A stretch of DNA of 64,000 nt, taken from contig JAVRCJ020000002.1 of NCBI GenBank assembly GCA_034530875.2, forward strand, positions 128,001-192,000. The letters run 5' to 3'. This document shows positions 46,280-52,234 of this stretch, piece by piece (position 1 is the stretch's first letter; the number at the start of each line of letters is the position of its first letter). This DNA is from Nostoc sp. DedSLP01 (lineage in GTDB: Bacteria > Cyanobacteriota > Cyanobacteriia > Cyanobacteriales > Nostocaceae). A program made the translations under genes and the position numbers. The notes under the pieces are model-generated. The model saw only the letters and a list, made by a program, of their open reading frames with translations, was not told the DNA's origin and searched no databases.

Positions 46280-47422
46280 ATGGATATTTATCAAGTTGCA
46301 ATTCGTCCACTGTTGTTCAATCTGGTAAAAGCAGACTCAGAGTGGTTACACCAAAAGACAATTAGCAGTTTTAATTGGCTATCACAAGCAGGTAGCAATC
46401 CTGCTGCTAGTTGGGTTAATCATCGGCTACAAAAATCTTTGTGCTTGGATGATTCACGTCTAGAACAAAATTTGTTTGGGCTAAAGTTCCCAAATCCCGT
46501 AGGTTTAGCTGCTGGGTTCGACAAAGATGGCGTTGCTGCTAACATTTGGCCAAGTTTGGGTTTTGGCTTTGCGGAATTGGGAACTGTAACTTTTCACGCA
46601 CAGCCAGGAAATCCGCGTCCGCGTTTGTTTCGCTTGCCATTGGATAAAGCTGCTCTCAATCGGATGGGATTTAATAATAGTGGTGCAGCAGCAATGGCAG
46701 CAAGATTGGCACCAAAAAAGCAGGAGTTAACTCGTTCAATACCCATAGGAATAAATTTGGGTAAATCTAAGGTAACTCCTCTAGAAGCAGCCGCACAGGA
46801 TTATCTTGAGAGTTTTCGCCTGCTTAAGGATTTGGGAGATTATTTTGTTGTTAATGTCTCTTCGCCAAATACGCCAGGGCTACGATCGCTCCAAGATGCT
46901 ACCATGCTCAGTGCCATCTTAGAGTTATTACAACAAGAAAACACTGCACAAAAACCAATTTTTGTCAAGATAGCACCAGATTTGTCTTATGAAGCGATCT
47001 CTGACATTATTTCGCTAGCTAAAACCTACCAACTAGCGGGAATTATCGCCACTAACACTACTATTAGTCGTGACGGACTCAAAACCCAAATAATAGAGCA
47101 AACTGGCAAATCACCACAGTTAGAAGCTGGCGGAATTAGCGGCGAACCATTGCGCGATCGCTCCACTGAAGTAATTCGTTTTATTTGGCGGCAAACTCAA
47201 GGACAAATTCCCATTATCGGCGTTGGCGGCATTTTTTCTTCACAAGATGCTTGGGAAAAAATTATTGCTGGTGCTAGCTTGATTCAGGTTTATACCGGCT
47301 GGATTTATGAAGGCCCAATGATGGTACGCCGGATTCTTAAAGGTTTGCTTTCCCATTTAGAAGCAAGCGGATTAAATTCCATCAGCGAAGCTGTTGGTTT
47401 AGAAGTAAAAAGTCAAAAGTAA
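46280..47422 (+). CDS. pyrD: Quinone-dependent dihydroorotate dehydrogenase
   Basis: [37 protein letters not shown]. Confidence 0.96.
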
Positions 47423-47458
47423 AGCTTTGAAGTTCTTTACTTTTGCCTTGTATCCTGA

Positions 47459-48184
47459 TTATTCTTCCAGTGGGAAAAATTCTTTAGTTTTTTCCGAGTA
47501 TGACCAAGCAATACCATCGGGGTCTCTGCTGCGACTCCACTCTGGAAATTCTGGGTCATTGCGTCGTTTATAAACTGTACTGGAATAAACATTTAGCCGC
47601 TTGGCTAGTTCGGATTGAATTAGAGAGCCAAATACTAATTGTTTTTCTAGCGTTTTTGTAGTTTCGTTATGGGTTGGTTCTGGGAGCGATTCAGTTTCCT
47701 CGTCGGGTTCTTCCTCCTGTTCTATTGATGGTGGTGCTAAAAACGATAGCGGAGTTTTAGAAATTGGTTGAGCTGAAAGTTGCTTGACAGGTTCGCTACT
47801 ATCAAGAATGTTGCCCAGAATGCTGGCAGTTATGAAGTAATAGTACGGAGTTTCGCTGTCATAATTTAGGATACTAGCGCCAAATTCTTGAGCTTTGGTA
47901 TCTAAGTAGCGTTTTGCAGTTGCTCCGGGAAAATTGCCTCGGATTGCCAAATCCATTGGCGTCAGTTTTCCCTGATTTTCCCGAACTAATTGATGAAAAA
48001 TGGGGTTAACTCGCACAGTCCACTGTTGCCATTGATATTCCTGCCAAATCTTGAAGGCAATTACCAGCACAATTCCTGCCAGTAAAATTCTCCACGTGGC
48101 AACCAGGAAAATAATCAAAAACGAGAGGGGCAAAAGTATAACGAGAAAAGCCTTACCGTTACCTTCTATGGTTTGTTCACTCAT
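47459..48184 (-). CDS. Conserved hypothetical membrane-anchored protein with C-terminal HTH-like segment
   Basis: N-terminal TM pair; QSELAKRLNV.SSTV.KR...WSRSRDPDG. Confidence 0.75.
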   Translation of the reverse strand: MSEQTIEGNGKAFLVILLPLSFLIIFLVATWRILLAGIVLVIAFKIWQEYQWQQWTVRVNPIFHQLVRENQGKLTPMDLAIRGNFPGATAKRYLDTKAQEFGASILNYDSETPYYYFITASILGNILDSSEPVKQLSAQPISKTPLSFLAPPSIEQEEEPDEETESLPEPTHNETTKTLEKQLVFGSLIQSELAKRLNVYSSTVYKRRNDPEFPEWSRSRDPDGIAWSYSEKTKEFFPLEE

Positions 48185-48411
48185 GCCTCATTTTTGCCAA
48201 GTGAATTTTGGAAAATAATTACTATTATATTGGCAAAAATTTGGACATTTTTTGTATAGTTTGGCAAATTTTCCGGCAAAAATGTTTTTTGGTGGGTCTA
48301 AGAGATTGGAAAATCGTACAAATTGAAGACTATAACTGAGAAATCTCGCAAAAATTGTTTGCTAAAGTGTAGCGATGCCTGCGGCGAGCTACACCTACGC
48401 ACCCGACCAAA

Positions 48412-48470
48412 GTAGTACAAATAAATTAGTTTGTGAAACACTTGACATCTTGTACTACATAAACTACATT
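48412..48470 (+). promoter_or_regulatory. Sigma70-type promoter for the Y RNA/Ro60 cluster with a flanking inverted repeat
   Basis: TTGACA 48442-48447, 17-bp spacer, TACATT 48465-48470; GTAGTACAA (48412) and TTGTACTAC (48450) are reverse complements. Confidence 0.7.
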
Positions 48471-48512
48471 AATAATACAAGCAGATGTTCATCAAGGAGT
48501 TAGCTTTCCTTA

Positions 48513-48656
48513 GTAGCGGATAGCTCAAATAACAGAGTGCCCACATAAAGTTTCCAACTTGCCTGTAAAGGCCGATATATCGAGGGTTATCGCATACTAA
48601 AACCCCCTCGATTTAACTTCTGGAGATGCAGGTGAAAATCCTGCTCCGCTACACCA
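48513..48656 (+). ncRNA. tRNA-like Y RNA candidate, copy 1
   Basis: 8-bp acceptor GTAGCGGA/TCCGCTAC + A-CCA, D arm GCTC/GAGT, T arm GCAGG-TGAAAAT-CCTGC, internal CTTGCCT-GTAA-AGGCCGA and AGGGTTATCG. Confidence 0.8.
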
Positions 48657-48715
48657 AATAATTTTAGATTTAATCCAAAATCTAAAATTTAAAATCTAAA
48701 ATCCAAAATTTTCAT

Positions 48716-48845
48716 GTGGTGGATAGCTCAGCGGATAGAGCGCCTAAATATCCTTGTTCGCTCCTTGCCTGCAAAGGCCGAAGAATTGAGGGTTATCGCC
48801 TGCCAAGCGGGAGGTCGCAGGTTCAAATCCTGCTCCACTACACCA
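48716..48845 (+). ncRNA. tRNA-like Y RNA candidate, copy 2
   Basis: GTGGTGGA/TCCACTAC + A-CCA, TAGCTCAGCGGATAGAGC D arm, GCAGG-TTCAAAT-CCTGC T arm, CCTTGTTC..CTTGCCT-GCAA-AGGCCGAAGAATTGAGGGTTATCG. Confidence 0.85.
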
Positions 48846-48954
48846 AATTGAGCAAAGTAGTTAGGAGTGAAGAGTTAGGAGTTGAAAGTTTTCAATTCAA
48901 AAATTTTTAACTCAAAACTCATAATTCCTAACTTCTAACTCCTAACTTTAATAT

Positions 48955-49078
48955 GTGGCGGGTAGCTCAGCGGTAGAGCGCTAAACACCCTTGTTCACCC
49001 CTTGCCTGTAAAGGCCGACGAATTAGGGTTATCGATTAGGGTTCGAGAGGTCGCAGGTTCAATTCCTGCTCCGCCACC
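48955..49078 (+). ncRNA. tRNA-like Y RNA candidate, copy 3
   Basis: GTGGCGGG/TCCGCCAC acceptor (no encoded CCA), TAGCTCAGCGGTAGAGC, GCAGG-TTCAATT-CCTGC, CTTGCCT-GTAA-AGGCCGACG. Confidence 0.85.
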
Positions 49079-49079
49079 T

Positions 49080-49111
49080 TTCATTTTTGCCTGCAAAGGC
49101 CGGGAGATGAA
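49080..49111 (+). promoter_or_regulatory. Y-RNA-like hairpin covering the Ro60 ribosome-binding site
   Basis: TTCATTTTT-GCCT-GCAA-AGGC-CG-GGAGATGAA, 3 nt before the ATG at 49115. Confidence 0.6.
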
Positions 49112-49114
49112 GAG

Positions 49115-50716
49115 ATGAATTACAATTTCTTTACTAAAAAGAAAACAACTACACCACAAAATCAGCCTATCCCCGGACGCGAAGCCGAGATGATTCAAGG
49201 ACGTTCCGGTGGTTGGATGTTTGATGCTGGCATTTGGAAGATGCTGCGCCGTTGTCTTTTGATTGGCACGGCAAAAAGCACTTACTATGCTGGCAAACAC
49301 GAATTAACTGAAGATTTTGTCGCAGTAGTTAAAGAAGCTGTTGCTGAAAATCCCAGTCGCGTGGCAGAAGAAATTCTTTATGCTAGCGATGGACGCGCCA
49401 TTAATAACAGTGCGCCGATTTTGGCTTTAGTTTTGCTGTCAATGGGTGAAACGCCAGAAGCAAAAAAAGCCTTTGGTGAAATTTTCCCCCAAGTTGTCCG
49501 CACAGGTAGCCATTTTTATGAATGGTTAAACTACACCAAATCTCTGCGGGGATTTGGCAAGGTGGTGCGCGAAGCTGGTAAAACTTGGCTATCACGAGAA
49601 GATGTCAAAGGTTTAGCTTATCAACTGTTGAAATATCAACAGCGCCAAGGATTTACCCACCGGGATGCATTGCGGTTGTTCCATGTCAAACCGCCTACAG
49701 AAAATCACCGTCAACTATTTGAGTGGGTTGTGAGAGGCTGGGATGAATTACCAGCAGACATCCCTTCAGAAGCGTTGGCGCAGATTTGGTGGTATGAATG
49801 GCTCAAGCGGAACCCTAACCAAACCCATGAAGCTATTTTGCAAGGACGCCTAACTCACGAAATGGCTGCACCTGTGGGCAAAATGGACAAAGCTGCTTGG
49901 CAGTTGCTATTTCAGGAAATGCCGATAGGTGCGATGCTGCGTAACCTGGGTTCTTTGACTGAACTCGGTGTGTTGCGAACTGACGAGGGCGCCAACTTGC
50001 AGCGAGTGGAAGCAGTTCTCAACAATAAAGAATATCTGCGTAAAGGTCGCATCCATCCGATTGATGTTTTGAAAGCACTCAAAACTTATCAATCTGGTGG
50101 TAGATTAGGACGCAGCCAGAAGACTTGGAACCCAGTTTCGCGGATTGTGGACATTTTAGAAAAGGCAGTTGAATTGTCTTTTGATGTGGTGCAACCCACA
50201 GGTAAAGTGTTTATGCACGCCGTAGACGTTTCTGGTTCTATGGGTAGCTTGGTTGCAGATATGGGACTGAGTTGTTGTGAAATTGCCACCACAATGGCAC
50301 TAGTCACAGCAAAAGCAGAGAAAAACTACATAATTCGCGGCTTTGCTACGGAATTTCGAGATTTGGATATCACCGCTAAAGATAGTTTTAGTTCTGCGGT
50401 TCGCAAAGCCAGCAACCAAAACTTCGGCGGAACTGATGCGTCTGTGGCTTACGACTGGATGATTAAAAATAAGTTCAAAGCTGATGTTGTCTGCTTTTGG
50501 ACTGACTCGGAAAGTTGGGCTGGGTATAAGCATCCAAGTCAAGCACTCAAGGAGTACCGCCAAAAGGTAAATCCCAACGTCAAGGCGGTGTATGTTACTC
50601 TGGCACCTTACCGCATTACTTTGGTAGATCCTGAAGATCCGCTGTCTTGGGATTTGGCAGGGTTCGATCCGGGTACGCCTCGGATTATCCAAATGCTAGC
50701 TACTGGTGAGTTATAA
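49115..50716 (+). CDS. rsr: Ro60/Rsr TROVE-domain RNA-binding protein
   Basis: RRCLLIG....YYA, VRTGSHF, KYQQRQG.THRD.LRL.H.KP, AMLRNLG.LT, HP..VLKA..TY, vWA MIDAS DVSGSM, GGTD, TDSESWAG. Confidence 0.93.
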   Translation: MNYNFFTKKKTTTPQNQPIPGREAEMIQGRSGGWMFDAGIWKMLRRCLLIGTAKSTYYAGKHELTEDFVAVVKEAVAENPSRVAEEILYASDGRAINNSAPILALVLLSMGETPEAKKAFGEIFPQVVRTGSHFYEWLNYTKSLRGFGKVVREAGKTWLSREDVKGLAYQLLKYQQRQGFTHRDALRLFHVKPPTENHRQLFEWVVRGWDELPADIPSEALAQIWWYEWLKRNPNQTHEAILQGRLTHEMAAPVGKMDKAAWQLLFQEMPIGAMLRNLGSLTELGVLRTDEGANLQRVEAVLNNKEYLRKGRIHPIDVLKALKTYQSGGRLGRSQKTWNPVSRIVDILEKAVELSFDVVQPTGKVFMHAVDVSGSMGSLVADMGLSCCEIATTMALVTAKAEKNYIIRGFATEFRDLDITAKDSFSSAVRKASNQNFGGTDASVAYDWMIKNKFKADVVCFWTDSESWAGYKHPSQALKEYRQKVNPNVKAVYVTLAPYRITLVDPEDPLSWDLAGFDPGTPRIIQMLATGEL

Positions 50717-50765
50717 AAATTAGTGGAGGATAAAGGATGAAAAACTTTATCCTTCATAACTTCAT

Positions 50766-50874
50766 GGCGGGTTACCCTTGTTCGCAACTTGCCTTTCGGG
50801 GACGAAGAATTGAGGGTTATCGGTTACATCTCCAACATTTTGGGGATTAGCGGGTTCAATCCCCGCACCCGCCT
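50766..50874 (+). ncRNA. tRNA-like Y RNA candidate, copy 4 (no D arm)
   Basis: GGCGGGT/ACCCGCC closing stem, CCCTTGTTC..CTTGCCT-TTCG-GGGACGAAGAATTGAGGGTTATCG, T arm GCGGG-TTCAATC-CCCGC. Confidence 0.8.
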
Positions 50875-51016
50875 TTGTTTTGGTGTTGCTGATTGAGAAT
50901 TATGAATTTATGTCACGCAGAGTCGCAGAGTCGCAGAGAGTAAGAGTTGAGAAGAGGTGATTTTTAGATTTCATATTCAAATTCAGCAATGTCCTCCTCT
51001 GCTCCTCCGCCTCTTC

Positions 51017-52234
51017 TTAAGCACTTCTTAAGGCAACAATTGGGTCGAGTTTAGCTGCGCGACGTGCGGGAACAACACCAAAGAATAAACCGATACCGCC
51101 TGAAACACCGACTGCTGTGGCAATTGCTACGGTAGAAATTCCGGCGTCTAAAGGGGTTAAGGCTGCTACTAAGAGAATGCCACTAACGCCAACGGCGGTA
51201 CCAACTAAACCGCCGGCGGCAGAAACTATTACTGCTTCAATGATGAACTGTAGCAAAATATCTTGCTCTGTTGCACCGATCGCTTTTCTTAATCCGATTT
51301 CTTGAGTGCGTTCGGTGACGGAGACTAGCATAATATTCATGATGCCAATGCCGCCGACAAACAGCGATATGGCTGCGATCGCTGCTAGCATAATTGTCAA
51401 TGCGCCCGTAATTTGACCAACTGTTTGCAAAGCATCTTTCTGGGTGCGAATCGTAAAGTCGTCTTCATCATTAATTTTGTGTCTTAGACGCAGCAAATTC
51501 GTAATTTGGAACTCTGCTGCATCCACACTATTACCATCACGAGCAGCAGCTACCACGTAATCTAAGGCGATTCCATAAGGAGAATTCTTTCCCACAAGGC
51601 GATTTGCAGAAGTTGTAATCGGGATTAAAGCAGCTTCATCATAATCTGCTCCGACGCTGGAACCTTTGGCTATTAATGTCCCAATTACTTGAAAGCTGGT
51701 ATTGCCAATTCGCAATTGCTGGCCGACAGCGTTACCACTACCAAATAATTTTTCTGCTAAGTCTGCACCTAATACAACAACTTGATTGCTGCGCTTAATG
51801 TCTACTTCGTTAAAAAACCTGCCTTTATCAGTTTCAAAATCCCGCACTGATAAAAAGCTAGGAGTTGTACCAATAATGTTGACATTGGTGTTTCGGTTAC
51901 GGTAAATAATTACTTGTCTTCGATTTAACTCTGGTGCAACTCCTATCACTGTTGGCACTTGAGAAGCGATCGCGTCAGCATCTTGCAATACTAAATTTTT
52001 TGGCACTTCAAAGGAAATCCGCTGAGTTTCTTGATTTCCTGGCAGTACAAATAATACATTTGGCCCTAGCGATTCCAGTTGTTTTTTAACAAATTTTTGC
52101 CCCCCTTCGCCAATACCAATCATGGCAATAACTGAAGCATTACCAATAACTATACCCAACATCGTGAGCGCACTACGCAGTTTATTCGATAGCAGGGTTT
52201 TCCCCGCCATTTGCACGCTTTCTAAAAAATTCAT
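51017..52234 (-). CDS. MacB/FtsX-type ABC transporter permease
   Basis: LRSALTMLGIVIG, GGIGIMNIMLVSVTERTQEIGLRKAIGA, PARRAAKLDPIVALR. Confidence 0.93.
   Translation of the reverse strand: MNFLESVQMAGKTLLSNKLRSALTMLGIVIGNASVIAMIGIGEGGQKFVKKQLESLGPNVLFVLPGNQETQRISFEVPKNLVLQDADAIASQVPTVIGVAPELNRRQVIIYRNRNTNVNIIGTTPSFLSVRDFETDKGRFFNEVDIKRSNQVVVLGADLAEKLFGSGNAVGQQLRIGNTSFQVIGTLIAKGSSVGADYDEAALIPITTSANRLVGKNSPYGIALDYVVAAARDGNSVDAAEFQITNLLRLRHKINDEDDFTIRTQKDALQTVGQITGALTIMLAAIAAISLFVGGIGIMNIMLVSVTERTQEIGLRKAIGATEQDILLQFIIEAVIVSAAGGLVGTAVGVSGILLVAALTPLDAGISTVAIATAVGVSGGIGLFFGVVPARRAAKLDPIVALRSA

Follow-up and report, generated by a model that had tools for sequence, protein, structure and literature searches.

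The Ro60 gene of Nostoc sp. DedSLP01 begins behind a short hairpin that copies the Ro60-binding helix of the Y RNAs encoded just upstream, and this hairpin, a helix mimic set at the start codon, probably acts as a translational operator. The leader imitates the Y RNA helix in sequence and in structure, is conserved with covarying pairs, is restricted to the start-codon region of Ro60 genes and is independent of the adjacent Y RNAs. We also lean, if only slightly, towards the broader view that a Y-RNA-mimic operator constitutes a widespread, hitherto undescribed loop of Ro60 autoregulation in bacteria and phages, tuned to be weaker than the Y RNAs themselves. The features on which the argument draws are listed below in coordinates of the window, by which we mean the whole 64,000-nucleotide stretch of DNA that was analysed.

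48442..48470, + strand: predicted sigma-70 promoter, TTGACA-17-TACATT, for RNAs 1-3 and the gene
48513..48656, + strand: Y RNA copy 1, tRNA order, with an encoded ACCA end
48716..48845, + strand: Y RNA copy 2, tRNA order, with the GGCCGAAG motif at 48776 and an encoded ACCA end
48955..49077, + strand: Y RNA copy 3, tRNA order, with no encoded CCA, running directly into the leader hairpin
49080..49111, + strand: full leader hairpin with the outer stem that pairs with the Shine-Dalgarno (SD), this outer stem being found in a subset of orthologues only
49087..49103, + strand: conserved hairpin core UUGCCU-GCAA-AGGC, bulged C49101, then GG; a capped copy of the Y-RNA Ro60-binding helix
49103..49106, + strand: GGAG SD, 8 nt 5' of the ATG, standing where the Y-RNA GNCGAA has AA
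49115..50716, + strand: Ro60/Rsr gene, 533 aa, with TROVE and vWA_Ro60 domains
50766..50873, + strand: fourth Y-like RNA, after the gene, with an acceptor stem, a variant of the Ro helix and a T arm, without a D arm

The protein encoded at 49115-50716 fits Ro60/Rsr, combining a TROVE ring, a vWA domain and a histidine equivalent to H187. Its ORF matches the families PF05731 and PF25045, being the sole match to the latter across the genome, and its structural relatives are 2nvo (E 5e-72) and 1yvp (E 1.5e-70). H190 is the alignment counterpart of Xenopus H187 (by position counted along the alignment), and earlier work reports that the H187S mutant loses Y RNA binding (PMC11277228). The nearest named relatives are from Nostoc (96%); the protein homologue search returned close relatives only, and a single-protein viral scan gave no matches. 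Neighbours of Ro60 in the window are a dihydroorotate dehydrogenase, an ORF without assignment and an ABC permease. Clustering of Ro60 with Y RNAs is common to this locus and to the Salmonella-type rsr-yrlBA-rtcBA operons under RtcR; unlike in those operons, no RNA-repair ligase gene adjoins Ro60 in the window. The distribution of the gene is patchy, with matches in 78 of 151 genomes of the family and 49 of 401 genomes of the phylum, and several of the fragments are short or contain stops.

A single promoter may serve RNAs 1-3 and the Ro60 mRNA, since a promoter is predicted at 48442-48470 and no terminator-like site lies between, or indeed anywhere in 48150-51100. A pattern of the TTGACA-17-TACATT type is also present upstream in 11 of the 15 relatives inspected. 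We dropped the reading of the leader hairpin as a terminator because its U-run lies 5' of the stem and that interval holds no terminator-like site. One RNA-library contig covers 48473-50874; such contigs give no transcript ends or levels and are silent on regulation, and DNA may be present (the RNA data comprise eight runs from two studies, with 5-7% of words; four were examined, and all contigs come from relatives). Between and after the promoter hexamers, at 48449-48481, TA(A/C)TACA repeats with a period of about 10 nt are kept in most relatives inspected and are a possible repressor site. AT-rich repeats at 48672-48711 fill the spacer between RNAs 1 and 2, and between RNAs 2 and 3 such short tandem repeats, at 48856-48949, make up an inverted repeat that is long and imperfect; this inverted repeat is the source of sub-threshold miRNA matches, and many other RNA-library contigs match these spacers.

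RNAs 1-3 look like YrlA: they carry a GNCGAAN0-1G-type motif and predicted D and T arms, and they lie on the same strand as Ro60, no more than 4 kb from it. According to Chen et al. (2014, PMC4201824), this likely Rsr-binding motif of YrlA/YrlB and Yrn1/Yrn2 resembles vertebrate GGUCCGA. Copy 2 has the exact motif (GGCCGAAG), paired with CTTGCC, and the variants GCCGAC and GCCGAT stand in copies 3 and 1. The circularly permuted YrlA order, with a closed acceptor stem and RNA ends that lie in the Ro-binding stem, does not fit RNAs 1-3. What fits cyanobacterial Y RNAs better, judging from their predicted pairing, is a tRNA order (acceptor 5' strand, D arm, capped Ro helix, T arm, acceptor 3' strand) with the capped Ro helix at the position of the anticodon arm. 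We favour it because acceptor pairing is far better within copies than across them: mismatches amount to 6 of 833 pairs within copies against 60 of 308 across copies, and among 44 neighbouring copy pairs the within-copy pairing is better in 35 and the cross-copy pairing in 1. In each of the three copies of the window, an additional G-C pair gives an acceptor stem of 8 bp.

The YrlA rows given for cyanobacteria by Chen et al. (2014, PMC4201824), which include Nostoc punctiforme, Nostoc PCC 7107 and Calothrix and lie 104-255 nt from Ro60 in most rows, represent the same RNAs, with GGCCGA..GAGGGTTATCG and D and T arms. The published alignment, however, runs from the Ro 5' strand to the next D arm and the CUUG strand, joining halves of neighbouring copies. 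A preprint's remark on long cyanobacterial acceptor stems follows the permuted order (bioRxiv 10.1101/312249). The tRNA order would correct the way in which cyanobacterial Y RNAs are drawn. As regards standard searches, RF02553 (Rfam) had no match in the window, ARAGORN predicted no tRNA in the window, and Rfam run on the upstream RNAs gave merely a sub-threshold tRNA match in RNA 2. An alanine-type G3.U70 pair in RNA 2 was considered and dropped (4 of 119 in the frame tested).

The copies also differ at their 3' ends. Of 136 non-last copies, 99 are followed by an encoded CCA, which likewise speaks for the tRNA order, whereas none of the 52 last copies that precede a leader is. The absence of CCA from the last RNA suggests a cut at the 5' edge of the hairpin. 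Endonucleases of the RNase Z type act on CCA-less precursors. A cut of this type after the last, CCA-less RNA would leave the mRNA intact.

The motif that links these RNAs to the leader is the 16-mer TTGCCTGYAAAGGCCG, which occurs four times in 47000-49400. Three occurrences, at 48559, 48765 and 49002, lie inside the three tRNA-like RNAs, and the fourth, at 49087, stands without a tRNA body; the recurrence is as the sequence-only reading of this DNA had described it, and its proposal that the hairpin mimics the Ro-binding helix of the upstream Y RNAs is upheld by the identity of the four copies. Under a stricter pattern, the TTGCCTGYAAAGGCCG-type form is found in the 8.57-Mb genome only at those four sites. 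A relaxed pattern had four matches with an SD and an ATG, the core being present only in the Ro60 leader. The rule used for orthologues below matched 37 of 5511 ORF leaders in the same genome; a regulon is unsupported, as the 36 matches other than Ro60 look like background.

Like the Ro60 module of the Y RNAs, including the neighbouring ones, the leader pairs a G-N-C-G strand containing a bulged pyrimidine with UUG(C/U)C. Unlike that module, it is a cis element of an mRNA, of about 17-32 nt, with reversed strands and a short-loop cap; it has no tRNA-like domain, and the GG of the SD replaces AA. The leader thus contains GGCCG and its partner strand and departs from GNCGAAN0-1G in that GCCG is followed by GG, which creates the SD; GG is present in 130 of 142 cyanobacterial leaders, and several distant Ro60 leaders retain CGAA. 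The leader does not have the form of a free Y RNA (80-130 nt, with a terminal stem and a large loop or tRNA-like domain), being a 32-nt capped hairpin that overlaps the SD. No Rfam family was found for it.

The segment 49080-49111 folds as a single hairpin (-11.2 kcal/mol, z -2.3), and 6 of 200 shuffles fold as well; taken by itself, this energy counts as modest evidence. In the minimum-energy fold, bases 49100 and 49101 are unpaired. The register read from the Y RNAs differs from this computed fold: by analogy, G49089 would pair with C49100, C49101 would be bulged, U49088 would pair with G49102, and an extra bulged G would lie farther out. The RBS had been placed 3 nt before the ATG; this distance is correct for the end of the stem relative to the ATG at 49115 and incorrect for the GGAG SD at 49103-49106, which is 8 nt before it, the distance from the G after the bulge being 13 nt. 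An upstream ATG at 49107 (M-K-R-stop, out of frame and overlapping the start) was judged incidental; it occurs in 33 of 84 orthologues and has no SD spacer.

Conservation was examined in loci collected from 151 genomes of the family and 401 of the phylum. Of the 92 loci, 7 distant ones (30-36% identity) and one lacking a standard start codon, L082, were set aside, leaving 84 orthologues; the leader hairpin of L082 is intact, with ATA at the expected start codon, and stands outside the counts. A fixed rule that requires C at the bulge matched 36 of the 84 leaders, and 70 matched when U was allowed as well, against a shuffle mean of 5.3 (maximum 12) and 0 of 28 other genes of the same loci. By eye, 11 of the 14 misses are near variants and 3 (L049-L051) have no leader hairpin although Y RNAs are present. 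A further 79 close Nostoc-type loci, which are not independent, gave 77 matches. The hairpin is conserved over about 67-100% protein identity, and the expectation of the sequence-only reading that orthologous leaders would keep it is borne out in these 70 of 84 leaders, with compensatory pairs, and also beyond the cyanobacteria.

The leader hairpin is conserved, covarying and specific to the Ro60 gene; good support is confined to its inner helix. In an alignment of 71 distinct leaders (L049-L051 and identical rows left out), three positions of the core show no variation, and only pyrimidines occupy the bulge, C in 39 and U in 32; the innermost pair is CG in 44, UA in 19 and UG in 6, and the pair beside the bulge is GC in 61 and UA in 4, with 6 mismatches. 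The five outer pairs are broken in 22-31 of the 71 leaders, RNAalifold returned just the 4 inner pairs, and covariation over the whole structure (0.218) is barely above that of a control slid by +1 (0.197). Across a tree of 83 proteins, which excludes L092 and on which the pattern gives L054 a wrong label, C and U interchange at the bulge about 14 times, at least 4-5 changes being forced. Compared with the near-even split in leaders, the Y RNA bulge is C in 182 of 190. Variants that are tolerated, a G.A pair and a U-A pair, are common to leaders and Y RNAs. A study of Thermus phage Ro60 reports that a minimal stem-bulge RNA is bound at 17 nM and that single C-to-U or A-to-U changes in CGAA weaken binding 3-4-fold (PMC12135203). 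The U bulge of about half of the cyanobacterial leaders is consistent with a weaker Ro60 site; the interchange of C and U could reflect relaxed selection rather than tuning.

These comparisons bear on the idea that the hairpin has no function and is what remains of a fourth Y RNA copy after truncation, retained through its overlap with the SD. The window 16-mer is identical to that of copy 2, and tandem copy number differs between genomes, so that duplication could create such a hairpin. A remnant would nevertheless not account for conservation with compensatory changes across about 67-100% protein identity, nor for the differences between leader and adjacent copy. In 47 cases the leader immediately follows a parsed RNA; its innermost pair is Watson-Crick within the leader in 34 of them, and in only 9 if the strand of the upstream RNA is used instead, and at 28 of these loci the leader has C-G where the 3' arm of the adjacent RNA has A; the pairing is therefore local. 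Furthermore, the hairpin is kept in 17 loci without an acceptor end in the 75 nt upstream (19 listed minus L050 and L051), survives the loss of the SD in L044 and is also present beside Y RNAs whose strand order is the reverse of its own (30 of 38 loci, see below). Sequence comparison thus largely refutes the remnant, which we consider highly improbable; duplication may explain the origin of the hairpin in cyanobacteria, but not its maintenance.

How a leader hairpin of this kind could work is a separate question. The initial proposal, that the SD is sequestered in a long TTCAT/ATGAA stem, was not supported by the comparison: this stem is complete in 28 of 84 orthologues, opening the SD costs just 2.7 kcal/mol, and in distant Ro60 genes the SD starts 0-8 nt after the post-bulge G in 37 of 42 matches. 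The long SD-hiding stem is a Nostoc-type extra, and the conserved feature, as read from the alignments, is a putative Ro60-type site within the ribosome footprint, not SD sequestration. Because of this placement, and because the long stem is of the Nostoc type and its SD pairing weak, steric blocking appears more likely than sequestration.

Opening the RBS region costs 9.8 kcal/mol in the window, against a median of 7.7 in cyanobacterial Ro60 leaders and 6.9 in 300 sampled SD genes, 18% of which are as closed over the initiation region as the window's gene. The hairpin might act independently of Ro60, by directing processing, by protecting the 5' end as a stem-loop or as a fixed initiation damper, and the fairly structured RBS region of the window and the cut at the hairpin's 5' edge suggested by the CCA-less last RNA (0/52 versus 99/136) would suit such a role. 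We regard it as quite unlikely, given that the median opening energy is close to that of the sampled genes, that a pyrimidine bulge with a G after it and the GGC/GGA signature would both be superfluous in a generic stem, that other bulge letters score near background, and that some hairpins have a protein gene instead of an RNA upstream of them.

Ro60 genes far from the cyanobacterial ones provide further evidence for the preferred reading, a Ro60-binding operator at the start codon. The distant sample comprised 224 loci, from which 12 without a usable start and 28 duplicates were subtracted to give 184. A distant rule was fixed after hairpins had been seen by eye in named records and 80 viral loci and before two further sets. 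It matched 14 of 70 leaders of the discovery set and 21 of 51 of the second viral set; among the metagenome leaders it matched 7 of 63, although the register of one, L314, is probably due to chance. Shuffled leaders gave 0.35-0.9 matches on average and at most 4, versions of the rule with an A, G or U bulge gave 0-5 matches, and other genes of the loci gave 1 of 100, 2 of 45 and 1 of 47 in the three sets, one of these being an ORF inserted before Ro60 in L297. The second viral set was retrieved with an alignment whose seeds included loci with the hairpin, and it contains many related phages, so that this set is not fully independent and the metagenome set is the cleaner test. The hairpin lies at the start codon in 42 of 184 loci, compared with 0-7 at 11 other offsets, and is not enriched 25-300 nt farther upstream. 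Pair 2, which the rule does not fix, is C-G in 37 of the 42 matches, and the matches span 13 of 91 protein clusters at 60% identity. A Y-like 5' strand is present in 38 match loci and is uncapped throughout in 30, at which the strand order of the leader is therefore reversed relative to the Y RNAs.

The rule fails in 142 of the 184 distant leaders; it also fails in two proteobacterial plasmid leaders of the rsr-yrlBA-rtcBA type (L177 and L180), and 4 of 19 named records inspected pass it, namely the Streptomyces phages Stigma, Mildred21 and Naboo, and L413. The Mildred21 hairpin extends over the stop codon of the gene before it, and in the leader of Stigma (ON456343) the SD is outside the stem. 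Plasmid pAQ7 of Picosynechococcus PCC 7002 (NC_010474, L181) has a variant form of the leader. Ro60 might also bind the leader with some other outcome, such as protection of the mRNA end, a mark for decay or cleavage, or opening of the SD stem and activation. The sign of the effect is beyond the reach of comparative data, and published work reports that Ro60 stabilises Y RNAs, that Yrn2 accumulation needs Rsr and that Rsr acts with PNPase (PMC4201824), as well as that the Xenopus protein enters the stem and parts the helix (PMC12135203). However, the site always lies in the ribosome footprint, as the SD spacing in 37 of 42 matches and the absence of enrichment upstream attest, and protection or decay would not require such placement; moreover, the SD is outside the stem in most distant matches, which leaves nothing to open. 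An outcome other than repression is unlikely, in our judgement, though it retains some real chance of being correct.

A model built on the operator reading would run as follows. Transcription from one promoter would yield RNAs 1-3 and the Ro60 mRNA together, and tRNA-type processing would free the RNAs and leave the hairpin at or near the 5' end of the mRNA, which is predicted to lie close to 49078. With GG in place of AA and, in many leaders, U at the bulge, the leader would be a weaker Ro60 site than the Y RNAs. Once the Y RNAs are loaded, the Ro60 left free would bind the leader, cover the SD and block ribosome entry, mainly sterically, with the SD-pairing stem of the Nostoc type merely adding to the block. 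The Ro60 level would in this way be matched to the Y RNA supply, limiting Y-free Ro60. In its broader form, the model places the mini-helix just before, inside or just after the SD in separate Ro60 branches, the Ro60:Y RNA ratio being set at translation; in cyanobacteria the operator would be fused to tRNA-order Y RNAs and exposed when the last, CCA-less copy is cut off.

The comparison with ribosomal-protein leaders is apt. The S15, S8 and L20 leaders and the thrS operator are autogenous and mimic the main RNA target of the protein, and the S6:S18 ribosomal-protein leader is said to be a target-mimic autogenous translational operator. The same logic would hold for the Ro60 leader, a target mimic that overlaps the RBS of its own gene and is apparently weaker than the target, but here the partners are Ro60 and a Y RNA, and repression, demonstrated in those systems, is inferred. 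For Ro60 this logic may be new: we found no report of Ro60 autoregulation or of Ro60 binding to its own leader in the literature searched, which takes in a minority of the subscription journals.

In Deinococcus, as described by Chen et al. (2014, PMC4201824), Y-free Rsr serves rRNA maturation and Y-bound Rsr serves decay with PNPase. The papers searched do not address how cells set the ratio of Y-free to Y-bound Ro60, and a leader operator, if true, would offer a concrete mechanism. The leaders would also represent dozens of putative Ro60 sites of minimal size provided by nature, among which the variation would show which changes the protein accepts, and the hairpin flags the likely start codon of Ro60 genes. 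If the reading is true, any Ro60 present in the cell could influence how much Ro60 is made from phages that bear the hairpin.

Several further observations concern distant loci. A second placement, with the SD in the loop or stem and followed by the bulged C-G-A-A before the start codon, was noticed after the rule had been fixed and has weaker controls (L203, L229, L234, L343, L351, L352, L359, L370, L383 and L416). A wider post hoc rule matched 11 of 63, 23 of 70 and 30 of 51 leaders, with shuffle means of 4.2, 4.0 and 1.8, and we treat placement after the SD as a lead, not a result, because other bulge letters score up to 13 of 70. In L297, a clean leader hairpin precedes a GIY-YIG-like ORF (703-1504; label from a reading of its N-terminus) whose stop overlaps the Ro60 ATG; this ORF has the appearance of an insertion that has captured the operator and whose translation is coupled to that of Ro60. 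Finally, Y-like RNAs near Ro60 in L214, L274 and L332, hairpins of standard order, score against Rfam RF01656 (nematode ceN72-3_ceN74-2), the score being above gathering in L274.
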